From contig CAWBGT010000027.1 in NCBI GenBank assembly GCA_963788375.1, forward strand, positions 679,020-743,019: 64,000 nucleotides of DNA, written 5' to 3'. Below the pieces are notes generated by a model. The model saw nothing but the letters and a program-made list of their open reading frames with translations. It did no database searches and was not told the origin of the DNA. Positions 7,784-26,548 of this stretch are shown here, piece after piece (position 1 is the stretch's first letter; each line of letters opens with the position of its first letter). The stretch is from an uncultured Chloroflexia bacterium (GTDB taxonomy: Bacteria > Chloroflexota > Limnocylindria > Limnocylindrales > CSP1-4). The position numbers were made by a program, and so were the translations under genes.

Positions 7784-8728
7784 CTACACCTGGCCCTTCT
7801 CGAGCAGCGGCCTGACCTCGGTGGCGAACCGGGTCATCGACTCCTCGTCGTAGTCGGCCGGCGTGCCGGCGATCAGGTGCCGGTAGCCGATCTCCAGGTA
7901 CGGGGCGATCTTCTCGGCCACGTCCTCGGGTGTTCCGACAGGCTGGTCCTCCCACGGAACGGCCACCCGGTTGCGATCGAACGCGGCCCGGTACAGGCGC
8001 TCTGCCTCCGCCCGGTCGTCGCGGATGAACACCGTGCCCACGCCCGTCGTGCGCTCGATCTCGGACGGGTCGCGACCCACGGTCTCGCAGTGCTGGAGCA
8101 GCACCTGCTCCTTGTGCCGGACGCCGGCCACGCCGCCGCCGACGTTGTTCATGTCGCCGTACTTCGCGACCAGCTTGAGCGTGACCTTCTCGCCGCCGCC
8201 GCCGATGCAGATCGGCAGGTGGGCCTGGACGGGCCCCGGCAGATTCCGGGTATCGCGGCTCACGTAGTGGGGACCGGCGGCCGTGGGCTCCGTGCCGTCG
8301 AGCATGCCGCGCATGATCGGCAGCGCCTCGCCCAGCCAGCGCAGCCGCTCCGGGAAGCCGGACCCGAAGTCGAGCCCGAAGTCCTCGTGCTCCTCCTCGA
8401 ACCACGCCCCGCCGATGCCGAGGATGGCGCGGCCGTTGCTGATGTGGTCGAGCGTGGTCGCCATCTTGGCCGTGAGCGTGGGCGCCCGGAAGGTGTTGGC
8501 ACCGACCATCAGGCCGATCCGGATCTGCTTCGTCGCCTGGGCCCAGGCCGCCAGCGTCAGCCAGCCCTCGAAGTTGGGCCCCGTCGAGTCACCGACGATC
8601 GGATAGACGTGGTCCCAGGTCCAGAGCGTGTCGTAGCCCAGCTCGTCAGCCCGAATGCCGGCCCGCAGCAGAGCGGGCCATTCGGTGTACTGGTTCCAGC
8701 AGAGTGCGCCGATCTTGACCTGGGCCAT
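7784..8728 (-). CDS. Luciferase-like monooxygenase (LLM) class F420-dependent oxidoreductase.
   Basis: 'MAQVKIGALCWNQYTEWPALLRAGIRADELGYDTLWTWDH...LIAGTPADYDEESMTRF' is a typical LLM fold sequence. ATG at 8728 is preceded by GGAGAC. Confidence 0.75.
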   Translation of the reverse strand: MAQVKIGALCWNQYTEWPALLRAGIRADELGYDTLWTWDHVYPIVGDSTGPNFEGWLTLAAWAQATKQIRIGLMVGANTFRAPTLTAKMATTLDHISNGRAILGIGGAWFEEEHEDFGLDFGSGFPERLRWLGEALPIMRGMLDGTEPTAAGPHYVSRDTRNLPGPVQAHLPICIGGGGEKVTLKLVAKYGDMNNVGGGVAGVRHKEQVLLQHCETVGRDPSEIERTTGVGTVFIRDDRAEAERLYRAAFDRNRVAVPWEDQPVGTPEDVAEKIAPYLEIGYRHLIAGTPADYDEESMTRFATEVRPLLEKGQV

Positions 8729-8897
8729 GGGGCAGTCTCCGTGACGGGCGGGTTGGGGCGCCTCCGTCAGGGTACCCGTGAACGCCTGGGCTGGGCCCGA
8801 CGCGCCCGGTTCGCGACGAGCGCGTATCCTTCGGCCTGCTCCGGCTCTCGCCGGATAGTGGGCAGCGTTCCCGCTCGTTACCGGAGGACACCACCGC

Positions 8898-9359
8898 ATG
8901 ACCAGCAGCCAGCCAGCTCGCCCGTCCCACCGCCGCCGGTCCATCGCCGCGCTCGCGCTCGCCGTTGCGGCTGTCGCGATCATCGTGTCAGCGTGCTCGT
9001 CCTCGGGCGGCCTGACCGGCAAGACCTGGCAGCTCACCGCGATCACGGAGAAGGTGCCCGCGTTCCAGGGCGTCGTCCCGGCGGCCGACCAGCCGAACTA
9101 CACGATCGCCTTCAACGACGACGGGACGGCGACCATCCAGGCCGACTGCAACAGCGTCACCGGCACCTACACCACGACCTCGGACGGGGCCATGACAATC
9201 ACGCTCGGCGCGTCGACGATGATGGCCTGCCCGGAGGGCTCGATGGCGGACCAGTACATGGCCGGCCTGTCGGCGACCAAGAGCTACGCCGTTGACGGCG
9301 ACCAGCTCACGCTGACCCTCGCCGACGAGGGCACGCTGGAGTTCGCAGCCGCGAAATAG
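8898..9359 (+). CDS. Lipoprotein with a META/HslJ-like (DUF306) domain.
   Basis: Signal peptide with lipobox 'IVSAC'. GGAGGA RBS. '...YTIAFNDDGTATIQADCNSVTGTY...DGDQLTLTLAD' resembles the META domain. Confidence 0.55.
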   Translation: MTSSQPARPSHRRRSIAALALAVAAVAIIVSACSSSGGLTGKTWQLTAITEKVPAFQGVVPAADQPNYTIAFNDDGTATIQADCNSVTGTYTTTSDGAMTITLGASTMMACPEGSMADQYMAGLSATKSYAVDGDQLTLTLADEGTLEFAAAK

Positions 9360-9521
9360 CGTTCAACGGGGCCGCCTGGGAGCGGCCGATCACACCACTG
9401 GACGCGGCGTCACCGGGGGACCGGGCGCCGCGTCGGTGCGTCCGCTGCGTCCGCGCACCTGGCAGCCGGCCCGGGCGGGCGGCCGCGGCCCACGCCGCCC
9501 GCCAAGGGGACCGCTCGGCCG

Positions 9522-12140
9522 TCAGTCCTTGAGGACGATGTTGACGAGCCTGCCGCCGCCGGCGTGGATGATCCGCGCGGGCTTGCGGCCGCCCATCGCC
9601 GCAACGACCTTGTCGCGCTCCAGGACGATCTTCTCCAGCTTCCGCTCGGAGGTGTCGCTGGGGACGGTGACCTTGTCCCGCAGCCTGCCGTTGACCTGGA
9701 TCGGCACCTCGCGGGTCGCCTCGGCGAGGGCTCGCTCGTCCAGCTCGGGCCAGCGCTGGACGTGGATGGACTTCCACACCTCGCCCCGGGTCTCGAGCCG
9801 CCGGGCCCACAGCTCCTCGGTGATGTGCGGCGCGGCCGGTGACAGCATCAGGAGCAGCAGATCGACCGCCTCGTCCCACTCCGGCTGGCCGGCAGCTGGG
9901 GTCCCCCGGTATCGGGACAGGAGGTTGCTCAGCTCCATGAGCTTCGCCACCATCGTGTTCCAGCGGAAGCCCTCGTAGTCATCGGTGACGTCGCGCAGGG
10001 TGCGGTGGGCCGCGGCGTGCATCCGGTGGCGCGCGACCTCCTCGGTCTCACCCTCCGGCAGGGTCACACCCGATGGATCGCCGGGCTCGCGGCCGTGCGG
10101 GTCGAGCGCGATCGCCCAGACGCGGTTGAGGAACTTGCCCACGCCGCCGATGCCGGTGGGGCTCCACGGGCCACCCTGGTCCCAGGGGCCCATGAACATC
10201 AGGAACAGCCGGACGGCGTCCGCCCCATAGCGTGCGACCAGCTCGTCGGGGTCCTGGACGTTGCCGCGGCTCTTGCTCATGCGCTCGCCATCGGCGCCCA
10301 GGATCTGGCCCTGGTTGAACAGGCGGCGGAATGGCTCCTCCTCGTGGACGAGGCCCAGATCCTGCATCGCCTTGGTGAAGAAGCGGCTGTACAGCAGGTG
10401 CATCACCGCGTGCTCGGCGCCCCCGGTGTACTGGTCCACCGGCGTCCAGTCCTTGACCTTGTCGCGGTCGACCGGCCCGTCGGACTTGTGCGGGGAGAGG
10501 TATCGGAACCAGTACCACGATGAGTCGATGAACGTGTCCATCGTGTCCGTCTCGCGCCGGGCCGCGGCGCCGCACTGCGGACAGGGGACGTTGAGGAACG
10601 CCTCGTCGCGGTTGAGCGGGTTGTCCCCGGAGCCGCGGTAGTCCACGGTCTCGGGCAGCAGGACGGGCAGGTCCTGCTCGGGGACCGGGACGGCCCCGCA
10701 CTGCTCGCAGTGGATGACCGGGATCGGCGTGCCCCAGTAGCGCTGGCGGCTGATCAGCCAGTCGCGCAGGCGGTACGTGACGGCCTGGCGGCCCTTGCCC
10801 CGCTCCTCGAGCGAGGACACGATCTGGTGCCAGGCATCGACTGCCGGCCGCCCGGTGAACTCGCCGGAGTTGACCATCACGATCTGGTCGGTTGCCGTGC
10901 GCCCCCGGGTGAGGAGGTCCACCTCATCGAGGATGCCGCCCAGGAGCCCGTGGTGCTCCGGGGTGGCGGCGGCTGCGAAGTCGGCCGCCTTCTCAACGAA
11001 CGCCTCGGTCAGTGGCGCATCGGGATCGGCACCCTTGGGCATGACGACCCGCACGATCGGCAGGCCGAACTTCTGGGCGAAGGCGAAGTCGCGCTCGTCG
11101 TGGGCGGGGACGGCCATGATCGCGCCCGTGCCGTAGGTGCCCAGCACGTAGTCCGCGATGAAGATTGGGATCCGCTCCCCGTTGACCGGGTTGATGGCGT
11201 CCGCGCCGATGGGGACGCCGGACTTGTCCCTGTCGGTGGACAGGCGGTCGATCTCCGTCTTGGCGGCGGACGCCGCGACGTAGGCGTCCACGTCGGTCTT
11301 GCGCTCGGGCGCCGTCAGCGCCGCAACCAGCGGGTGCTCGGGTGCCAGGACCATGAAGGTGGCGCCGAATAGCGTGTCCGGGCGCGTGGTGAAGACCCGC
11401 AGCTCCTCGCCGCCGGCGTGGTGGGGGGAGGGGGCCGTCTCGAACACGATCTCGGCGCCGGACGAGCGCCCGATCCAGTTCGTCTGCATGATCCGGACGG
11501 GATCCGGCCAGTCGATGCCGCCGAAGTCGAGCAGGTCGTCAGCGTAGTTGGTGATGCCCAGGTACCACTGGGGCAGCTCGCGCTTCTCGACTTGCGCGCC
11601 GCATCGCCAGCAGTGCCGGTCCGTGCCCTCGACCTGCTCGCGCGCCAGCGTGCCGTCGTTGGGGCACCAGTCCACAGCGGAGACCGAGCGGTAGGCCAGC
11701 CCCTTCTCCATGAACTTGAGGAACAGCCACTGGTTCCAGCGGTAGTACTCGGGGTCGCATGTGACGACCTCGCTGGTCCAGTCGAACGACGCGCCCATCG
11801 TGCGCAGCTGGCTGCGCATCTTCTCGATATTGGCCATCGTCCAGTCGCGCGGGTTGATGTTGTTCTTGATGGCGGCGTTCTCGGCCGGCAGCCCAAAGGC
11901 GTCGAAGCCCACCGGCAGGAACACGTTGTCGCCATGCATGCGGCGGTAGCGGGCGATCGCGTCCGTGGGCGTCTTCACGTACCAGTGGCCGATGTGCAGG
12001 GACCCCGAGGGATAGTCGTACATCGTGAGCAGGTAGTAGGGGCGCTTCGAGCGGTCGTCGAGGTCGGTCTCGTACAGGCGGAGGTCGGCCCAGCGCTGCT
12101 GCCATCTGGGCTCGATGGCCGCGGGCTCGTAGCGCTCCAT
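9522..12140 (-). CDS. leuS: Leucyl-tRNA synthetase.
   Basis: '[17 protein letters not shown]...[23 protein letters not shown]...' plus a KMSKS-region equivalent ('MSKSRGN'). An alternative GTG start lies at 12203. Confidence 0.95.
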
Positions 12141-12284
12141 GCGTGAGCGCCCCACGCTGGCGTCGCCCTGACCGGTGCTGTCGGTATCGCCTGTCGTCGT
12201 CACGGTCCCGTCCCTGCTCGGTATGAAGAACGAACCCCCCGCCGGTCCCGGCGAGGGGTCAGGGTGTCGGCGTCAGCGGGGTGT

Positions 12285-12360
12285 TGGTGGAGCTAAAGGG
12301 ATTCGAACCCTTGACCTTCTGAATGCCATTCAGACGCTCTTCCAGCTGAGCTATAGCCCC
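12285..12360 (-). tRNA. tRNA-Ala (anticodon GGC), with encoded CCA.
   Basis: The cloverleaf was folded by hand: acceptor GGGGCUA with G3:U70, anticodon loop AUGGCAU, T-loop TTCGAAT. Confidence 0.9.
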
Positions 12361-12392: not shown

Positions 12393-13846
12393 TCAGCCGC
12401 CTCCGATTTCGGACTGGCCGTGCTGCAGCCACTCGGCCGTCCGGGGTGCCCAGCGCCCGTCCGGTTCAAGCAGGACCGCCAGACGGCGGAGGTCCGCCAG
12501 CGTGTCGACGTCCGGCCAGGACTCGACGTCGGCCACCTGCCAGCCGGCCGACGCGAGGCCGTTCCTTGCGGAATCGAACGCGGTGGTGCCGGCGGTGGCG
12601 CCATCGGTGAAGGCTCCCCTCAGCCTGGCCGCCAGGTTGCGCCGGACCCGGCGTCGGAATGGGGCCGGGGTTGTCCGCGGAAGCTGCCGCCAGCGGGCGC
12701 CGACCAGGTGGTAGCCGCCGTCCTCGGCAGGTCCCAGGACGGCACTTCGAGGGCCACGGGCGAGCACGGCCATCGCGGCCTCGATGCGGGCCGGCGGCAA
12801 CCCGGGCGCGTCACCCGCGACGGCGATGGCACGATCCGCGCCGCGGTCGAACGCCGCGAGGAAGACATCGGCAAGCGCCGCTCCCAGCCCCGGGCCCGTC
12901 TGGATGACCGGCGTCCAGGCCGGACCGATGATCCGGGCGACCGAGTCCACATCAGCGACGGACGGGAGCATGGCCATCGGGTTCCAGCGAGCGGATCGCG
13001 CCGCCGCGAGCGCGCCATCGGCGGCATCGGCCATGCAGGCGGTCCAGAAGGCCGTCGTGGCCTCGTCGCCGATCTCGGCGGCCAGGCGCGTCTTGGCCCG
13101 GCCCGGCCCGGGAGCCTTGACCATGAGGGCGAGGAGGGGTCGCGCCGCCGTCTCCGACCAGGCACGCCCGACCATGGCCCGGCCGGCCGCCACGGACGCT
13201 CGCAATGAGCCGGAGACCTTGCTCGTGCCGCCCCGGCGTCGCCGGAAACGGACCGGCACCTCCCGGTACCGGATGGTGGGCTCGGCGAGCACCCGCGCGA
13301 CCAGCTGGGTCGTCCAGCCGTAGCCCGCATCGTCGAGGTCGAGCCGGCCGAGGACGGGAGCGCGCAGGGCCTTGAACGGCGGCAGGTCGTGGACGATGCG
13401 CCCGGTCCGGATCGACATCACGGCGGCGACCAGGTCGTTGCCGAGCCGGGCATGCCAGGGCATCGCGCCGTCCTCGACCAGGCGACCCGGTCGCCTGCCG
13501 AACGCCACGTCCGCCGACCTCAGCGCCACGACCAGGGCCGGCAGGTCCGCAGGGTCGCAAGAACCGTCGCCGTCCAGGAACGCCACCCCGTCATGGGTGT
13601 GGCCGGACGTAGTGGGATCCAGGGCATGTTCGGCGCCGGTGAGGCAGGCGCGCCCGTAGCCGCGTCGCGGCTCGTCGATGAGGATGCCGCCTGCTTCCGC
13701 CGCAGCGCGCCGCGTCCCGTCGCGCGACCCACCGTCGACCACGAAGGCACAGCACGCCCCCGATGCGCGCATGCCGCGGACGACGGCCCCGATCGCGGTC
13801 TGCTCGTCGATGACCGGGATGACGGCGGCGATGGCCGGGCTCATGG
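12393..13846 (-). CDS. GT2 glycosyltransferase (TIGR04283-like), fused or translationally contiguous with a DUF2064 / TIGR04282-like nucleotidyltransferase-like domain.
   Basis: N-terminal 'MSPAIAAVIPVIDEQTAIGAVV...DGGSRDGT' is a GT-A fold motif. C-terminal 'LLALMVKAPGPGRAKTRL...AIAVAGDAPGLP...GGYHLVG' matches DUF2064. No stop separates the two domains, so they may be two genes if a frame error exists. ATG overlaps the upstream stop (ATGA). Confidence 0.65.
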
Positions 13847-15401
13847 TGTGGCCCCATCCGGCTCGGGTGCCCAGACGATGAACTCGCCATCGTCGACCAG
13901 CACCGCGCGATCCCCGGCCAGGAGCGAGGCGAGCATCTTGTCGTGGCGGTTCCGGGCCCGAAGCGTCGGCGACCATGGCGTGCGGTCCATGACGACATAC
14001 GCATTCGCGGGAGGGACCGGGCCGGCCATCAGGCGCCGGATGTCGGTTCGCGCGGCGAGTGGCGCCACCAGCCCCTCGTCTGCCGCAAGGATCGCTTCGG
14101 CAGGCACGATGGCGGCCGCCAACTCCAGTCCATCCAGCCGGGCAGGCCGGGCGGCGAACGCTGGGTCGCTCATGTCGAACGGCGGGATTGAGCCCTGGAC
14201 CCAGGCGCCGACCGCCGCCGGGATGATCAGCAGCAAGGCCAGCAGAGGAGCGAGCCGCCGGGTCTGGGAATCGGGGGCGCCGCGACCCGGCGCGTCCCGC
14301 GGTCGGCGACGCGGGCCCCGCCGCCACCTTCGCTCGGCGACCGCCAGTACCCGTCGCCCGCCGAACCCGGCGGCAACGATCAGCGGCACCACCAGGATCA
14401 GCCCGTACTGGAGCCGCAGGTTCGCCTGGAAGTCGTTGGCGGACAGGAGTGCGGCGGCCATCGGTGGCAGGGCCAGGAGCAGCCAGCGCGGACGGACCAG
14501 GGGCAGGCCGAGGAGGGCGACGACCATCCCGGCTGCGGCAAGCCACGGCGTGGCCCGGGCGATGTGGGCAACGACCGCGGCAGTCCGCTCGAACGGCGCC
14601 AGCAGGACGGCAAGCCCGCCGCCAAGCCAGGCGTAGTAGCGGTCGGTATCGGCCCCGGCGCCGTCGCGGATGGCCGGCATCACGAGGCCGAAGGCCGCGA
14701 TCGCCCAGGCGGCGGCCACGAGCACGAGGAACCGGCCCTGGCGGCGGGTCGAGCCGCGGCCCCGGACCGCCACCGCCAGTCCGACCACGGCGACCGCGTA
14801 GCCAACGTCCTCGCGGGTCGCGAGCGCCAGCAGCGCGAGCGCCCACATCGCGCGATGGCGCTTCGTGAGCCCCGCCCATCCGGCGAGGAGCGCGAGCGCG
14901 ATGCCCGCGGTCTCGGGATGGAAGTCGGCCCGGATGACGTCCTGTATCGTGCCCCACAGCGGGATCCCAATCGCCAGGACCGCGGCGAGCACCGGCCCGA
15001 ACTCGGCCGGGACGGAGCAGCGCGCGGAGGAACAGGAAGGTGGCCGGGATCAGCGCCGCGACCGACACGGCGTGGGCCAGGTTGAGGACGCGCACGTCCG
15101 GCCCGACGAGGCGCTCGATCGCGGCCGGGACCACCAGGATCGGCGAGAAGTGGAGCCCGAGGAACGACCCCTCGTGGAAGCTCGAGACCCAGCGACCGCT
15201 GTCGGCGACGTTCCAGACGACCTGCTGGAAGAAGGCCAGGTCGTATGGCGGGGCCGCGAGACCCACGGTGCGGCTCACGAGGAGTGCGGCCACCCAGGCC
15301 GCTGTCGCGATCGTCGCCAGCCCAACGAGGCCGGCCGGGATCGCCCCGCGCCCGAGCCCAGGGTTCACCCGGCTCCCGATCAGCCGGCCGCCGGAGCGGC
15401 G
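13842..15401 (-). CDS. DUF2079-family polytopic membrane protein, with an apparent frameshift near 15005.
   Basis: 'YDLAFFQQVVWNVADSGRWVSSFHEGSFLGLHFSPILV' is in the frame of the 1344-aa ORF. The continuation 'EFGPVLAAVLAIGIPLWGTIQDV...' is in the frame of ORF 13841..14992. Confidence 0.55.
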
Positions 15402-16418
15402 TGTCCGCTCGGAACGGGTCAGGAGTGGCTTCCCCGACGCGCGATAGCCATCCGCGATCCCCCGCGCCGCGGTCTCGATGGCCTGGGCAGCGGACAGCCG
15501 CGGCTCCCAGCCAAGGGCCCGCAGCGCCGAGGTCTCGAACTCGACATAGGGCGTGTCACCCGCCCAGCCGCCGCCACCGGGGCCGCGGCCCGCGTACGTC
15601 AGCTCGACCGACGCGGGCGCGAGTCCCAGGGCCTCGATCACGATCGCGGCCACGCGCTGGACGGTGACGGTCCCCTCGGTCCCGACGTTCAGGATCGTCA
15701 TCGGGGACCGCGCCGCCGCCGCAACTCCGCGCCGGATCCCGGCGACCAGGTCGTCCACGGCGATGTAGGGCTTCGCCTGGGTGCCGTCGCCCAGCATCTC
15801 GAGGCGGGTCGGGTCCCGCAGGAGCTTGACCACGAAGTCATGGACCACGCCATGGTTCGATCGCGGGCCGACCGTGTTGCCGAAGCGGAACGCGTGCGCC
15901 CGCCAGCCGTACAGGCTTGCGAAGCCCGAGATCAGCGCCTCGCCGGCAAGCTTCGCGGCCGCGTAGTGCGACTCCGGCAGCAGCGGGCCGTCGCCTTCCC
16001 CGGTCGGGATCCGGGCCGGGCGGCCGTAAACGACCCCGGAGGAGGCGAACCAGATCTCGTCAATCCCGACCGCGTGCATCGTCTCGCACACGAGTTCGGT
16101 GCCCACGACGCCGCTCGCGAAGTCCCGCTCGGGGTGGTCGAAGCCCCCGGCGATGTCTGTTCCCGATGCGAGGTGGACCACGCGACGGTGGCCGGCCATG
16201 GCGTCCCGGAGCGCGTCGCGGTCCGTGATGTCGCCGCGGACAAAGTCCAGGAGCGGGTCTCCGTCGAACCGGGTCGCCCAGTCCGGCTCCGCGGTCGAGA
16301 GGTTGTCGAAGACGGTGACGGGTGCCCCGTCACGCAGCAGCGATGCGACCACCTCGCCGCCGATGAACCCGGCGCCGCCGGTGACGAAGGTCCGGACCGG
16401 CTCCAGGCGGTCCGTCAT
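15402..16418 (-). CDS. NAD-dependent epimerase/dehydratase (SDR family). There is no in-frame stop before the DUF2079 region, so the 3' boundary is approximate.
   Basis: 'TFVTGGAGFIGGEVVASLL' Rossmann motif and an 'YAAAK' catalytic motif. ATG at 16418 overlaps the DoxX stop (ATGA). Confidence 0.7.
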
Positions 16419-16975
16419 CCGGGCCATCGGCGACGAGCGAGCGCCAGCCGGGCGTCAAGGCCGTGCCAGCGGCCGGCGCGGAAGACGGCGAGGCACAGGA
16501 GCGGCACCCATTCCACCGAGTACTCGTAGATCCACTTGTCGTTCCACAGCGTCGCGAACTGCAGGTGGAGCGCCATGCCCGCCGCGACCAGCGCCGCGAT
16601 CGGGGTGACCAGGCCCAGGATCAGCAGGACGCCGACGATCGTCTCGACCAGTCCCACCGAGAAGCCGAAGAACCCGAAGTTGGGCAGCACGACGCCCTCG
16701 ATGAAGGAGCGGTAGGGCTCGATCGGATGCGGCTGGGTGATCACCTCGTACTTGAGGATCGACTGGGCGCTGCGACCACCCTCGGCGTTGATGACGAACC
16801 CCAGCGGCGTGTCGGGCCACAGGTTCGGGACGGCCGGCAGGATCTTGGCCAGGCCGTTGTGCAGGAAGACCACGCCGAAGAAGATCCGCAGCGTGGCCAT
16901 CGCGCGGCCGAACCACAGCCCGGTCGCGATGGCGGCGATCGCCTCGGATTGCGCGCTGCGTGCGCTGGTTTCCAC
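16415..16975 (-). CDS. DoxX-family membrane protein.
   Basis: 'LRIFFGVVFLHNGLAKIL' and four predicted TM helices. Confidence 0.65.
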   Translation of the reverse strand: METSARSAQSEAIAAIATGLWFGRAMATLRIFFGVVFLHNGLAKILPAVPNLWPDTPLGFVINAEGGRSAQSILKYEVITQPHPIEPYRSFIEGVVLPNFGFFGFSVGLVETIVGVLLILGLVTPIAALVAAGMALHLQFATLWNDKWIYEYSVEWVPLLCLAVFRAGRWHGLDARLALARRRWPG

Positions 16976-17111: not shown

Positions 17112-18251
17112 TCACCCGCAGACGAACCGGTCGAGCCTGGCCGGCCCCGATGCCAGGATCTCGTCCAGGCGCCGGCGGACCGCGACCAGCGCCTCGGCCA
17201 TCGACGAATCCGCCGGCAGGTCGAGCCGCATGTCGGGATCGTTGGACAGCGGGTGCCAGAACCAGCCCAGCGCATCGCAGGTCAGCTCGGGTGCGACGTC
17301 CTGGGGCCGGATGGGCTCGCCCTCCGAAGCGGCTCCGCGCAGCGCGATCGGCCGGAAGATCCGGTCGTCGGGCCGGATGCCGAAGTCGTCCGCCAGGCGG
17401 TGGAGGTGCGGGATCTCGTCGAGCGCCTCCTCGGGCAACGATGCCGCGAGCCGGACGCGGGCCCCGGCATCGACCAGGGTCCGGATCCCGCGCAGGGCGC
17501 CGGCATGGGCACCGCGGCCACGGTGGGCGTCGTGGCGCTCCGGCGTCACGGAATCGAGGCTCACCTGGAAGGCGATCGGCCGGCCGGCATCGATCAGCGG
17601 CCGGATCCGGTCCCAGCGCGGTCCGCGGAGCAGCATCGCGTTGGTGAGCAGCGTCAGCGGCAGGCGATCGGTCACGTAGGCGATCAGGTCGGCGATGTCG
17701 GGCCGCAGCGTCGGCTCGCCGCCGGTCACGAACACTGCGTCCATGCCGGCCCCAACGGCCTCGTCCACCAGGGCGCGGATCCGAGCGTCCGACAGGCGTC
17801 GCGGGTCGGCCTTCGGACCGGCAACCACGCAGCAGTAGTCGCAGGCGAGGTTGCAGTCGTAGTTGGTGTACAGCCACAGGCGGGTGGGCATGAACGACTC
17901 GCCTTGCGACACCGCCACGACCGCCTCGGCCCCACCCTCGTGTGCGCCGTCCGCCGGCCAGTCCGTCCGCGCCGGCCCCTTGCGCAGGTAGTGGAGGGTC
18001 CACCCGGGCCGCTCGGGATCGGGGATCACCGACAGTAGCCCGTGACGGCTCACGGCCTCGAAGGTCTGGAGCTGCCCGGTGAGCCGGTCGCTGGGGCTGG
18101 CGATTCGCACGATCTGGCCGTCGCGGATGCCGAGCAGCGCCCGATGGAGCGGCAGCAGGAGCCCGGACTCCAGGTCGGCCTCCGGGTCCTCGACCATGGC
18201 ATGGACGGGCAGCGCCCGGCCGCCGCCGTAGTTGGCCGGGTCGGCGGTCAC
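17112..18251 (-). CDS. Radical SAM enzyme with a ~120-aa N-terminal extension of unknown function.
   Basis: CxxxCxxC motif 'YTNYDCNLACDYCCV'. Glycine-rich SAM motif 'VFVTGGEPTL'. Start overlaps the upstream methyltransferase stop. Confidence 0.7.
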   Translation of the reverse strand: MTADPANYGGGRALPVHAMVEDPEADLESGLLLPLHRALLGIRDGQIVRIASPSDRLTGQLQTFEAVSRHGLLSVIPDPERPGWTLHYLRKGPARTDWPADGAHEGGAEAVVAVSQGESFMPTRLWLYTNYDCNLACDYCCVVAGPKADPRRLSDARIRALVDEAVGAGMDAVFVTGGEPTLRPDIADLIAYVTDRLPLTLLTNAMLLRGPRWDRIRPLIDAGRPIAFQVSLDSVTPERHDAHRGRGAHAGALRGIRTLVDAGARVRLAASLPEEALDEIPHLHRLADDFGIRPDDRIFRPIALRGAASEGEPIRPQDVAPELTCDALGWFWHPLSNDPDMRLDLPADSSMAEALVAVRRRLDEILASGPARLDRFVCG

Positions 18252-18994: not shown

Positions 18995-19435
18995 CTAGCC
19001 CGGGTCGGACGCGGGCTCCACCGGGAGGCCCGCCGCGGCCCACGCCTCGAACCCGCCGACGACGTCCGTGGCTCGATCGAAGCCGAGGTCGCGAAGGGTG
19101 GCCGCGGCCAGGCTCGAGCTGTAGCCATGGGCGCACAGCAGGACGATCCGGGCCGCTGGATCGGAGAGGCGCGGATCGTCGTGGCCCGACGCCGGATCGA
19201 GGCGCCAGTACAGGACCGACCACGGGACGTGGATCGAACCCGGGACCACGCCGGTCTCCCGTCGCAGCTCCGCGCACCGGGTGTCGACCAGGATGGCCCC
19301 GTCGTCGGCCATCGCCTTGTGGACATCCGCCGGCTCGAGCCGGTCAAGCCGCGCCCGCGCGTCGGCCAGGAGGTCGTTCACGGTCCGCCGTCGGTTCGGT
19401 GGGCCCCCGGCTTCGGTCGGCCGGTTGTCGCTCAT
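18995..19435 (-). CDS. Single-domain rhodanese (sulfurtransferase).
   Basis: 'ILVDTRCAELRRETGVVPGSIHVP...IVLLCAHGYSSSLAA' with an active-site Cys in the CAHG loop. ATG at 19435 is preceded by GGAGGAGAGG. Confidence 0.75.
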   Translation of the reverse strand: MSDNRPTEAGGPPNRRRTVNDLLADARARLDRLEPADVHKAMADDGAILVDTRCAELRRETGVVPGSIHVPWSVLYWRLDPASGHDDPRLSDPAARIVLLCAHGYSSSLAAATLRDLGFDRATDVVGGFEAWAAAGLPVEPASDPG

Positions 19436-19691
19436 CGGTGCCTCTCCTCCAGGTTGCCCGGCATTGTGACCGCTCCGGGGATCGGTGGCCCGTCGAGGCG
19501 CACGATCGGGCGCTTGAAGAGGCCGGGGCCACCGGGATCGTCCGGGCGCGCGTGAACACCATCGGGTATTCGTGCGGACTGGAGGCGGTACTCCGGCCCG
19601 CGGATGTGGGCCGCACGGCTCCTGCCCGGCGTTCTCCGGCGTGCGAGCCTCAAGCCGCTTCTCAGGGCGTCGGCAGTCAGGAGATTCGAGC

Positions 19692-20075
19692 GTGGATGCC
19701 ATTGTCGGGCTAGCCGTGGTCGTGGGCCTCGCGGTCGTCGTGGCCTGGTTCGTGCTCTACCGGTGGAGCGGCGGCAGAGGGTCAGGCGACGTGGCCGCGG
19801 GAGCCGAGGAATGGGGCGACTTCCTCGTCCGGACCTACCGTGGGCACCAGCAGAGCGAGGCGATCGCGAGCTACGTGAAGGATGCGGAGACGCTCGCCCA
19901 GCGCGGCTATGCGCCAGCGGGCCAGAGCTGGGGCGACGGGCAGTGGGATGGTGGCACCTTCGTCATCGCGTTGATCCTCTCCTTGTTCGGGATCGGCCTC
20001 ATCGTGCTCGCCTACATGGCGATCATCAGGCCTGACGGAACGCTGTGCGTCACCTACCGGCTCGGGGCCACATAG
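19692..20075 (+). CDS. Small two-TM membrane protein (hypothetical).
   Basis: GTG start is preceded by AGGAGA. Hydrophobic helices 'IVGLAVVVGLAVVVAWFVLY' and 'FVIALILSLFGIGLIVLAYMAII'. Confidence 0.35.
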   Translation: MDAIVGLAVVVGLAVVVAWFVLYRWSGGRGSGDVAAGAEEWGDFLVRTYRGHQQSEAIASYVKDAETLAQRGYAPAGQSWGDGQWDGGTFVIALILSLFGIGLIVLAYMAIIRPDGTLCVTYRLGAT

Positions 20076-20284: not shown

Positions 20285-20932
20285 ATGGAGGCCTGGTTCC
20301 TCACGGCGATCTGCGTCGTCAGCCTGGTCGCGTTCGTGCGGAGCTCGGACCTTGTGCGCCGGTTCCTGCCCCGGCGCGATGCCACGGCCGAACCCGGTCG
20401 CTTCGAGCGATTCTGGTCGGGCGTGGACGGTCGGCTCCTGGCCGTCGGCTGGCTGGTGTTGTTCGCGCTCGCCATTGGCGATGCCGGCATGATCTGGAGC
20501 GAGACATGGAAGCCCGTGTTCGATGCGTTCCTCGTGCTCCAGCAGGTCGCCGCCGCCGCGCTCGTCCCGGTGACCGCCGGGCTCTACGTCTACAAGCGGG
20601 CGATCCCGCAGATTGCCCGTGAGGAGGCGGACGAGCGCGAGCGCGCGATCCAGGGCGACGTGTATCGGCGGGCCCACGGGATCGCCATCGGCGGGCTGGC
20701 GATCGGGTGCGCCCTGCTCGTCTTCAACCCGGCGATCGGCATCGGTCTGGCGCTCCACGCGGAGAGCCGTGGCGTCGAGCTCATCGACGTGCTCCTGCCG
20801 ACGTTCCTGCTGCTGTTCATGCTCCCGAGCGTCGCCTACGCCTGGATGAACCCGCAGCGCGACGACACCACGCCCGAGGCGCAGCGTGCGTCGCGCCTGA
20901 CGGGTTGGCTCGACCGAGCCACGGCGAGGTGA
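20285..20932 (+). CDS. Four-TM membrane protein (hypothetical), first gene of an operon with the XRE regulator.
   Basis: GGGGGAGGAG RBS. Hydrophobic segments. The stop overlaps the GTG of the next gene (GTGA). Confidence 0.5.
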   Translation: MEAWFLTAICVVSLVAFVRSSDLVRRFLPRRDATAEPGRFERFWSGVDGRLLAVGWLVLFALAIGDAGMIWSETWKPVFDAFLVLQQVAAAALVPVTAGLYVYKRAIPQIAREEADERERAIQGDVYRRAHGIAIGGLAIGCALLVFNPAIGIGLALHAESRGVELIDVLLPTFLLLFMLPSVAYAWMNPQRDDTTPEAQRASRLTGWLDRATAR

Positions 20933-21171
20933 CCGGCCGCAAGCCTGCGACCGAGGCACCGCTCCCGAACCGGATCGCCGACCTCCGCGAGACAGCGGGC
21001 ATGAGTCGTGTCGAGCTTGCCGAGCGGATCGGGGTCAATCCGCAGACCATCGGCTATCTCGAGCGGGGTGAGTACAACCCGAGTCTGGCGCTTGCCTTCC
21101 GCCTCGCCGAGCTCTTCGAGCTTCCGATCGAGCAGGTGTTCCTCCGGGACGGGGCACCCCACCGGACGTAG
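20929..21171 (+). CDS. XRE-family (Cro/C1-type) HTH transcriptional regulator, about 80 aa.
   Basis: 'RIADLRETAGMSRVELAERIGVNPQTIGYLERGEYNPSLALAFRLAELFELPIEQVF' is a canonical XRE HTH sequence. Confidence 0.7.
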   Translation: MTGRKPATEAPLPNRIADLRETAGMSRVELAERIGVNPQTIGYLERGEYNPSLALAFRLAELFELPIEQVFLRDGAPHRT

Positions 21172-26383: not shown

Positions 26384-26468
26384 TGGTGGGCCGGGGCGGA
26401 ATCGAACCGCCAAAGTCGAAGACGAGGGTTTTACAGACCCTTGGGCTCACCACCTGCCCGACCGACCC
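26384..26468 (-). tRNA. tRNA-Tyr (anticodon GTA), type II with a long variable arm, CCA encoded.
   Basis: Hand-folded: acceptor GGGTCGG/CCGGCCC, anticodon loop CTGTAAA, variable arm CGTCTTCGACTTT, T-loop TTCGATT. Confidence 0.85.
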
Positions 26469-26472
26469 ACGA

Positions 26473-26548
26473 TGGTGGAGATGAGGGGACTCGAACCCCT
26501 GGCCTCCGCGATGCGAACGCGGCGCTCTTCCAGCTGAGCTACATCCCC
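26473..26548 (-). tRNA. tRNA-Ala (anticodon CGC), CCA encoded.
   Basis: Hand-folded: acceptor GGGGAUG with G3:U70, anticodon loop TTCGCAT, T-loop TTCGAGT. It is 4 nt from tRNA-Tyr. Confidence 0.9.

Follow-up and report, generated by a model that had tools for sequence, protein, structure and literature searches.

A predicted cysteine-less TusA/SirA-type domain fused to a compact radical SAM enzyme in an uncultured Chloroflexota bacterium

Results

Features of the locus

The gene considered here lies on the minus strand of a stretch of 64,000 nucleotides of contig CAWBGT010000027.1, from an uncultured Chloroflexia bacterium; this whole stretch is called the window. The gene encodes an enzyme of the radical S-adenosylmethionine (SAM) type in which the catalytic core is preceded by ~120 residues. 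Structure prediction and profile comparisons lead to the conclusions that: (i) residues ~17-98 are predicted to be a complete TusA/SirA-type domain without the persulfide-carrying cysteine; (ii) the protein is, from its sequence, a sister, though a divergent one, of the Rv1681 (MoeX) family, and seems to belong to the same conserved cassette. Taken jointly, the identity of the domain and the family placement are considered highly probable. The order of the genes on the minus strand is rhodanese, methyltransferase, TusA-like domain-radical SAM fusion, DoxX, short-chain dehydrogenase/reductase (SDR), DUF2079, a fusion of a family-2 glycosyltransferase (GT2) with DUF2064, and tRNA-Ala (Table 1).

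Table 1. Position of the fusion gene, of its parts and of the neighbouring genes in the window.
Feature	Coordinates	Strand	Remarks
TusA-like domain-radical SAM fusion gene	17112..18251	-	379 aa + stop
Conserved N-terminal tail, residues 1-16, motif Y8-G-G-G-R12-x-L-P15	18204..18251	-	Invariant Y8, G9, R12, P15
Predicted cysteine-less TusA/SirA-fold domain, residues 17-98	17958..18203	-	
Low-confidence variable linker, residues 99-121	17889..17957	-	pLDDT (predicted local distance difference test) <50 at 101-115; identity 0.19
Compact radical SAM core plus C-terminal part, residues 122-379	17115..17888	-	PF04055; no SPASM/twitch
Cluster motif C133-x3-C137-x2-C140 and fourth Cys C141 (CNLACDYCC)	17829..17855	-	Invariant in 34/34
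GGE SAM-binding motif, G177-G178-E179 in TGGEP	17715..17723	-	Invariant columns
Penultimate Cys378, then Gly379 (end ...RFVCG)	17115..17120	-	Invariant in relatives
Rhodanese, single-domain, loop C-A-H-G-Y-S-S	18995..19435	-	Pfam Rhodanese, E 2.2e-12; start probable
Class I SAM-dependent methyltransferase, 213 aa	18248..18889	-	Pfam Methyltransf_25/11/12; 4-nt overlap with the radical SAM gene
DoxX/DoxD-family membrane protein	16415..16975	-	Pfam DoxX, DoxD
NAD-dependent sugar epimerase/dehydratase (SDR)	15405..16427	-	NCBIfam partial matches: GalE, dTDP-glucose 4,6-dehydratase
DUF2079 membrane protein, in two reading frames	13841..15368	-	Pfam DUF2079 matches on both parts
GT2 (polyprenyl-phosphate-sugar-synthase-like)~DUF2064 (TIGR04282-like) fusion	12393..13844	-	Pfam Glycos_transf_2 + DUF2064

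Reality of the N-terminal extension

The GC content of the window is ~72%, thus long spurious open reading frames (ORFs) are frequent. Moreover, the ORF list always gives the longest possible ORF, and at least one frameshift is present in the window, in the DUF2079 gene. These points would favour an artefact, i.e., a true start near the Cys motif or a sequencing error having fused two genes, and an ORF-extension artefact had indeed been raised as a refuting option by an earlier, sequence-only reading of this gene. The other observations contradict it. The codon signature of the ORF (GC content at third codon positions, GC3, 0.92; at second positions, GC2, 0.51) is typical for real genes in the window, GC3 being uniformly high. 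The start codon is a GTG that shares nucleotides with the stop codon of the methyltransferase gene upstream (GTGA) and follows a GGAAGGA Shine-Dalgarno sequence. The 120 database homologues having 60-87% identity cover, for nearly all of them, 98-100% of the query (88-97% for a few), and the same fusion recurs, across many assemblies, in over 120 homologues.

Among the more than 120 full-length homologues, conservation starts at residue 8. The four tail residues listed in Table 1 are invariant in the 34 homologues that were aligned, and residues 8-98 contain 16 invariant positions. The overlap, the Shine-Dalgarno sequence, the full-length homologues and the invariant residues of the tail together establish that the extension is not a longest-ORF artefact: the ORF and its extension are real gene sequence, the probability of the artefact is practically nil, and the ~120 residues are the genuine domain that had been announced.

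The mean pairwise identity is 0.48 for residues 1-16, 0.62 for residues 17-98 and 0.75 for the core, i.e., much above that of the linker, which also varies in length across homologues and is far shorter in both the Rv1681 family and the relatives of the P0138 type (see below). It must be noted that more than 5,000 homologues were detected in all, of which 236 full-length ones were retrieved. An Rfam scan revealed no element flanking the radical SAM gene (only three tRNAs and no riboswitch), and nothing was found by a promoter scan.

Predicted fold of the N-terminal domain

AlphaFold2 predicts the same confident beta-alpha-beta-alpha-beta-beta unit whether the full-length alignment or the isolated domain is used, with block-mean pLDDT values of 85-95 across most of the unit. 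Its elements are b1 (18-21), a1 (27-40), b2 (47-52), a2 (57-68), b3 (71-77) and b4 (85-90); the last strand is followed by R90-K-G, then by R95-T-x-W98. Foldseek places IscS-bound TusA at the top of the structural matches of the N-terminal domain, at modest E-values (about 4e-3) but with a TusA-normalised TM-score of 0.80.

The profile of the domain was compared with 1.84 billion representative proteins and only 16 matches were obtained: its own family, a few proteins of 160-170 residues and one spurious coiled-coil protein. Pfam identifies most of the proteins of 160-170 residues as tandem TusA proteins (E 1e-12 to 3e-37 for five out of six). When the alignment of the domain is compared by hhalign with an alignment of the TusA domains of these proteins and of E. 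coli TusA, the probability is 97.2% and E is 3e-11; in the latter alignment, the eight rows other than E. coli TusA are database sequences. An intermediate subgroup consists of fragments such as P0138 and P0150 ('...FASGLL...RPIGSRLWLYTNFDCNLRCDYCC...'), in which the same fusion is found with a short linker. Fragments of this type match Pfam TusA directly (E 1e-4 or precomputed PF01206 matches), and the related fragments P0136 and P0150 bear the JGI label 'TusA-related sulfurtransferase'. When the short relative P0134 was used as the seed of a homology search, only fragments were obtained.

The persulfide cysteine of TusA is Cys19 of the CPxP motif. In the hhalign register, this position is occupied by E28, at the start of helix 1 (Asp, Glu or Gly in the family). 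Residues 1-121 of the protein contain no cysteine at all, and the family alignment of the domain has no Cys-bearing column, one single sequence having a Cys at position 87. The most conserved parts of the domain are the N-terminal tail, the RPGW loop and the RKG...RTxW segment, and not the residues of the TusA active site. Since the cysteine is lacking, the domain would have the fold of TusA and not its chemistry.

The domain had been described as unexplained, bespoke and without obvious motif, and it had been stated that a match to a known domain would refute this description. Such a match is what was found, namely the TusA/SirA domain, and the architecture is shared by the NCBIfam family NF049973. 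As a separate matter, a double-psi beta-barrel (Molydop_binding) had been guessed from the string 'LGIRDGQIVRI'; the Pfam E is 0.035 and the predicted alpha/beta sandwich rules this candidate out.

Radical SAM core and cysteines

The Pfam model Radical_SAM covers residues 132-286 only (E 5.5e-22, 79 bits vs. a cut-off of 29.5). As already seen from the sequence, the CxxxCxxC core begins only near residue 125: the string LWLYTNYDCNLACDYCC corresponds to residues 125-141 and contains the cluster cysteines C133, C137 and C140. An aromatic residue, Y139, precedes the third of them (C133-N-L-A-C137-D-Y139-C140) in 34 of 34 sequences, and the segment T176-G-G-E-P180 is invariant in the aligned homologues. 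Of the 236 full-length homologues, 235 show the extended motif CxxxCxxCC. The core is modelled as alternating beta and alpha elements that match the cores of BlsE, MoaA and viperin; the closest solved structures are BlsE (7vob), SkfB, SuiB, PqqE, MoaA, viperin and AbmM.

After residue 141, the only cysteines are C325 (27 of 34 sequences) and C378, thus there is no SPASM/twitch Cys cluster and the description of the protein as a compact radical SAM enzyme is confirmed. The models of the SPASM families match the core only, with 35-77 bits for cut-offs of 265-850. The penultimate cysteine is followed by Gly in the window-type relatives (CG end, 120/120) and by Ala in the Rv1681-type relatives (CA end, 116/116). 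From these motifs, the core is equipped for reductive SAM cleavage; it has no auxiliary cluster and two additional invariant thiols, C141 and C378. Neither of these thiols, nor the operon context, had been taken into account in the sequence-only reading.

Relation to the Rv1681 (MoeX) family

The equivalog NF049973 ('Rv1681 family radical SAM protein') matches the protein with 269.3 bits (E 3.8e-80), residues 33-378 being aligned with profile positions 3-325. The curated cut-off of 380 is not reached, and true members score about 536 bits. The fusion architecture is already covered, unnamed, by NF049973, the window protein lying under its cut-off. What is new relative to this family is the complete predicted TusA fold with its tail and linker, the other set of partners and the other phylum.

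Rv1681-type proteins were reached via a tblastn match on a plasmid of Mycolicibacterium vanbaalenii, followed by a homology search seeded with it. Nearly all of them have 331-333 residues, and they originate from Mycobacteriales and Arthrobacter. Their overall identity with the family of the window protein is 33-37%. Both share the CDYCC, TGGEP, RPIAxxGxA and WHP motifs, the penultimate Cys with an F-x-C-[AG] end, an N-terminal domain apparently derived from TusA, a membrane protein of the DoxX/Rv1678 type as a neighbour and, in some genomes, the GT2 + DUF2064 pair alongside. On the contrary, Rv1681 proteins start with 'MVILDL...', i.e., with helix a1 of TusA, and have a short linker, whereas the window protein has the complete predicted fold including strand b1, the YGGGRxLP tail and a linker of ~23 residues. 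Moreover, the clade of the window has a coupled methyltransferase instead of the acyl-CoA dehydrogenase (ACAD) and binding-protein genes.

The N-terminal domain of Rv1681 (70 residues) matches the TusA alignment on its own (probability 96.6%, E 7e-10), and it is barely similar to the domain of the window protein when both are compared directly (E 0.044). This independent match indicates that a degenerate TusA domain would be carried by the superfamily as a whole. A homologue of 277 residues, encoded by a plasmid of Miltoncostaea oceani, has no N-terminal domain, no fourth Cys (CSYCL) and no terminal Cys. This single case suggests that the three features belong together.

Rv1681 bears the label 'MoeX, possible molybdopterin biosynthesis protein'. 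MoaA has a C-terminal auxiliary [4Fe-4S] cluster. The MoaA models give only 59 bits with the window protein (cut-offs 284-325) and the three Cys of this cluster are absent, thus the molybdopterin label has no sequence support. In the literature searched, no functional study was found for Rv1681/MoeX, Rv1678-Rv1680 or DUF2064, Rv1681/MoeX being mentioned only in papers on tuberculosis biomarkers and vaccines.

Genes surrounding the fusion gene in the window

The methyltransferase is translationally coupled to the radical SAM gene. Its best solved relative is Rv0560c (E 7.6e-4, not close) and no specific family was found in NCBIfam; it has one Cys and no ArsM match. The rhodanese gene is located 105 nt upstream on the same strand. 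It is listed as an ORF of 235 residues (18995..19702), the first ~89 codons of which are Arg/Pro-rich and non-coding in appearance. Similarity to relatives begins near residue 86-106, thus the true start is probably M90 of the longer ORF, at 19435.

Downstream, the GT2 domain is similar to polyprenyl-phosphate sugar synthases (AglJ, PpgS, ArnC-like), and the DUF2064 domain scores 93 bits with TIGR04282 (cut-off 134). No terminator-like site was found between 20243 and 12260. Neither selA, selB, selD, nor a TrsS-like radical SAM gene, nor an ArsM-like methyltransferase gene was found in the window or in the related loci searched: the only match of the selB query was a distant one at ~56.4 kb in the window, which we take for a translation GTPase of the generic kind, and the only match of the TrsS-like query was the radical SAM core. 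ACAD and SBP-like (binding-protein) genes are likewise absent from the 64-kb window.

Several other features of this region must be mentioned. The segment 12393-16427 of the minus strand is listed as a single ORF of 1344 residues, which corresponds to three or four chained genes without in-frame stop. Frame-specific GC3 shows a switch of the true frame near 15000 and its return near 13850. This switch, together with the fact that both parts share one frame in most of the relatives having both, indicates that the DUF2079 gene is split by a frameshift in a C/G run (~14993-15010). This frameshift is probably a sequencing error of the metagenome-assembled genome (MAG), and possibly the mark of a pseudogene. 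At ~15368-15405 (minus strand), the SDR gene and the start of the DUF2079 gene follow each other without intervening stop. In L001, which is the closest relative, they do not share a reading frame. The missing stop may be due to a second indel or to a real fusion.

A tRNA-Ala(GGC) gene (12285-12360, minus strand) lies directly 3' of the operon and is followed by a terminator-like hairpin (12233-12260), then by a leucyl-tRNA synthetase-like gene (9522-12203). A tRNA-Tyr/tRNA-Ala(CGC) pair is located at 26384-26548 on the minus strand. On the plus strand (20285-21171), divergent from the operon, a multi-pass membrane protein of 215 residues without family match and a small helix-turn-helix gene of the XRE type (20950-21171), a candidate local regulator, are encountered.

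Neighbourhoods of the relatives

The related loci are 30 in number, all from MAGs of Limnocylindria-type Chloroflexota; the partner patterns rest overall on about 35 loci. The methyltransferase gene is directly upstream of the radical SAM gene in 21 related loci and is kept there when other parts of the cluster are rearranged. DoxX is found in 25 of the 30, directly downstream of the radical SAM gene in most, and the block DoxX-SDR-DUF2079-GT2~DUF2064 is nearly always present. A rhodanese, on the other hand, is near the cluster in 4 of 31 loci only (the window, L002, L007 and L027).

Deeper-branching homologues (61-69% identity) have no methyltransferase gene; an Rv1679-like gene (ACAD fold) and/or an Rv1680-like binding-protein gene is found at the far end of the cluster or, in L026 and L028, both directly after radical SAM-DoxX. 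The loci having the methyltransferase, the window included, are devoid of the ACAD and binding-protein genes. Among the Limnocylindria loci, the methyltransferase (L001-L018 and the window) and the ACAD/binding-protein pair (L021-L024, L026 and L028) thus appear mutually exclusive and look like alternatives. The DoxX-type membrane protein is the constant partner of this radical SAM family, and GT2 + DUF2064 a frequent module.

The order in Arthrobacter is ACAD (NF049984), SBP-like (NF049985), radical SAM, DoxD, Rv1678_C membrane protein (NF049986), GT2 and DUF2064. In Mycobacterium lacus, the upstream part consists of an unannotated protein of 296 residues, then ACAD, SBP-like and radical SAM. 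The Miltoncostaea cluster (L032) consists of DoxX, AhpD-like, radical SAM, GT2, DUF2064, ACAD and SBP-like genes and adjoins selB-selA-selD. In this cluster (7798-10961), GT2 has an N-terminal extension of ~430 residues and DUF2064 is fused to a Nudix domain (NudE/ADP-compound hydrolase-like), a hint of a nucleotide-linked intermediate being handled by the DUF2064 partner.

Two further loci deserve a description. On the plasmid of M. vanbaalenii (L031, NZ_CP126902, 287-11807), the Rv1678-Rv1681-type cassette is surrounded by redox and selenoprotein-related genes, i.e., AhpD-like, deiodinase-like, glutaredoxin, CcdA/DsbF-like and DVU_1556/ArsM-like methyltransferase genes, and by the gene of a radical SAM protein of 527 residues that resembles (seleno)protein TrsS as well as Tes, the tetraether lipid synthase; the Rv1678-like protein of this plasmid has a weak DoxX match. 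In MAG MFD04651.bin.2.158, to which L003 also belongs, L030 is a second, divergent copy of the methyltransferase-radical SAM-DoxX-SDR-DUF2079-GT2~DUF2064 cluster, with a radical SAM protein 44% identical. The frame breaks in its radical SAM, DoxX, SDR and GT2 genes may reflect a decaying paralogous cluster or a contig of low quality.

Discussion

Proposed function

The TusA-like domain would be a tethered docking or recognition module, and not itself a sulfur carrier: there is no cysteine in it, and its conservation is highest at residues other than those of the TusA active site. Its task could be to place, at the entrance of the radical SAM barrel, either a partner (DoxX, rhodanese or methyltransferase) or a small ligand. 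Of the former suggestion of a substrate-recognition (RRE-like) or partner-binding module, recognition of a partner or substrate is thus retained as the most plausible role, while the RRE-like part is abandoned, no winged helix being predicted. For this docking role, the chances are judged to be about even.

The core would cleave SAM reductively and act on a small molecule, most likely a precursor of the sugar or nucleotide-sugar type rather than a peptide; this follows from the solved cores it resembles (including BlsE, DesII, AbmM, MoaA and viperin) and from the downstream SDR, DUF2079 and GT2~DUF2064 genes. C141 and C378 could serve as active-site thiols, i.e., hydrogen-atom donors or binders of a soft atom. 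The product may then be methylated by the coupled methyltransferase and enter the lipid-linked glycosylation pathway encoded by the downstream genes. This pathway is proposed tentatively and is rather doubtful; the explanation as a whole (docking domain, small-molecule radical chemistry and glycosylation) is somewhat favoured.

Several observations weigh against this interpretation: (i) the domain itself gives no Pfam TusA match (gathering score 28.6 bits), direct Pfam TusA matches occur in 3 of 19 relatives and are all weak (best E 0.028), the homology of the window domain with TusA being detectable at the profile-profile level only; (ii) in fold searches, the scores of the peptide maturases SkfB, SuiB and PqqE are close to those of the sugar enzymes; (iii) the Miltoncostaea homologue has DoxX, GT2 and DUF2064 as neighbours and no TusA-like domain, thus the domain is not needed for the association with those partners; (iv) neither the Rv1681 superfamily nor the cassette has a member of published function, so that every functional step is deduced from context.

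Alternative explanations

Among the alternatives, a sulfur or selenium relay is the main one, though improbable. The TusA-like domain would recruit the rhodanese or a cysteine desulfurase, C378, at the flexible C-terminus, would be the persulfide carrier, and the radical SAM core would form a C-S or C-Se bond on a sugar-type substrate, which the coupled methyltransferase would methylate to a methylthio compound. TusA binds IscS, and the top structural match of the domain is precisely TusA in this complex. DoxX/DoxD and rhodanese are families of sulfur metabolism, a rhodanese with a Cys-containing loop is encoded just upstream in the window, and others are near the cluster in three related loci. 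All 236 full-length homologues retrieved, which come from families with a TusA-like domain, have the penultimate Cys, and the one homologue examined that lacks the domain does not have it. Relatives lie beside selABD, TrsS-like radical SAM (under the family cut-off), deiodinase-like and AhpD-like genes; the second-best family of an Rv1680-like protein is a putative selenate-binding protein; and AbmM, a thiosugar-forming radical SAM enzyme, is among the structural neighbours of the core. However, the domain has no cysteine and its conserved residues differ from the TusA active site, the rhodanese is associated with so few loci, selenium genes are absent from the window, and the enzyme has no auxiliary cluster able to supply sulfur.

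A broader version is a long shot: the operon would make a methylated sugar that contains S, Se or As, is borne by a lipid carrier and is destined for the cell envelope. The carbon-chalcogen bond would be formed by the radical SAM enzyme with the atom delivered as a C378 persulfide, and the dead TusA domain would be the landing pad of the donor.

A chemistry like that of ArsS is unlikely. Like ArsM, the methyltransferase would methylate a metalloid or a chalcogen, onto which the 5'-deoxyadenosyl group of SAM would then be transferred by the radical SAM enzyme, and GT2/DUF2064 would process the 5'-deoxy-5'-X-adenosine to a glycoconjugate. The association of a methyltransferase, a radical SAM enzyme, GT2 and DUF2064 does mirror the 'arsenosugar' set of NCBIfam (TIGR04167 (ArsS), TIGR04283 and TIGR04282), the TIGR04282 scores reach 108 and 126 bits in relatives against 93 bits in the window, and the extra conserved thiols could bind a soft metalloid. 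But the ArsS match is generic (46.8 bits vs. a cut-off of 300, residues 125-263 only), the GT2 domain gives 27-48 bits with TIGR04283 (cut-off 182), and the methyltransferase has one Cys only, does not match ArsM, and is found neither in the deeper branch nor anywhere in the Rv1681 family.

That the domain is a nucleic-acid-binding module (a two-layer sandwich like IF3-C or Alba) of an RNA-modifying enzyme is very unlikely: structural matches of this type score well under those of the TusA family, sequence profiles tie the domain specifically to TusA, and the neighbours in the operon are membrane and glycosylation genes. A peptide-recognition domain of the RRE type (RRE, recognition element of ribosomally synthesised and post-translationally modified peptides, RiPPs), as in a RiPP maturase, is still less credible. 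The core does have SkfB, SuiB and PqqE among its fold matches, but the predicted order of the elements is not that of a winged helix (three strands, then three helices), no PqqD/RRE protein is among the structural or profile matches of the domain, SPASM/twitch is lacking and the conserved neighbours are not RiPP genes. In line with the former remark that no precursor-peptide ORF is obvious between 18.9 and 19.0 kb, no candidate precursor ORF was found nearby: no small ORF is wholly contained in the radical SAM-DoxX gap, the eight overlapping ORFs of at least 20 residues all running into the flanking genes. The RRE explanation thus fails on the fold, on the PqqD-like matches and on the precursor.

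Significance

The fusion of a TusA fold in itself would not much surprise a specialist, and the superfamily is already delimited by curators. What is gained is that the cysteine-less TusA fold, the terminal Cys and the fourth Cys are seen to co-occur throughout the Rv1681/MoeX superfamily sampled. The comparative data also set out a constant partner (DoxX) and exchangeable modules (ACAD + binding protein or methyltransferase; GT2 + DUF2064), and the possible chemistry is thereby narrowed. A domain without explanation has become a testable lead and a way into an uncharacterised cassette that is also found in M. tuberculosis. If C378 did carry a persulfide, this would be a new mode of feeding sulfur to a radical SAM enzyme without auxiliary cluster, and it would account for the Rv1678-Rv1681 (MoeX) cassette of M. 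tuberculosis.

Comparison with known systems

The enzyme can be compared with three systems. With the ArsS/TIGR04282/TIGR04283 set, it shares the association of a radical SAM protein, a family-2 glycosyltransferase, DUF2064 and a methyltransferase. All the window proteins are nevertheless under the cut-offs (ArsS 47/300, TIGR04282 93/134, TIGR04283 27/182) and no arsenic genes were seen. ArsS has a C-terminal Cys-rich domain, which is absent here, only two cysteines being located after residue 141.

BlsE (7vob), DesII (8hzv/8hzy), AbmM (8wm2) and MoaA (1tv7) are the best sequence or structure matches of the core, with a phmmer E of 5e-13 to BlsE and a Foldseek E of 1.6e-10. According to their descriptions, BlsE acts on cytosylglucuronate and MoaA takes part in molybdenum cofactor biosynthesis. 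The identity of the core with the fold matches listed is only 16-23%, and the C-terminal auxiliary cluster of MoaA is absent. The matches stop short of the N-terminal domain, their best stretches beginning at query residue 119-132.

The N-terminal domain itself would share with TusA/SirA/YeeD (PF01206) the two-layer beta-alpha-beta-alpha-beta-beta fold. It differs from them by the loss of the persulfide Cys of CPxP, with E28 at the position of Cys19, and by its fusion to an enzyme, whereas TusA is free-standing.

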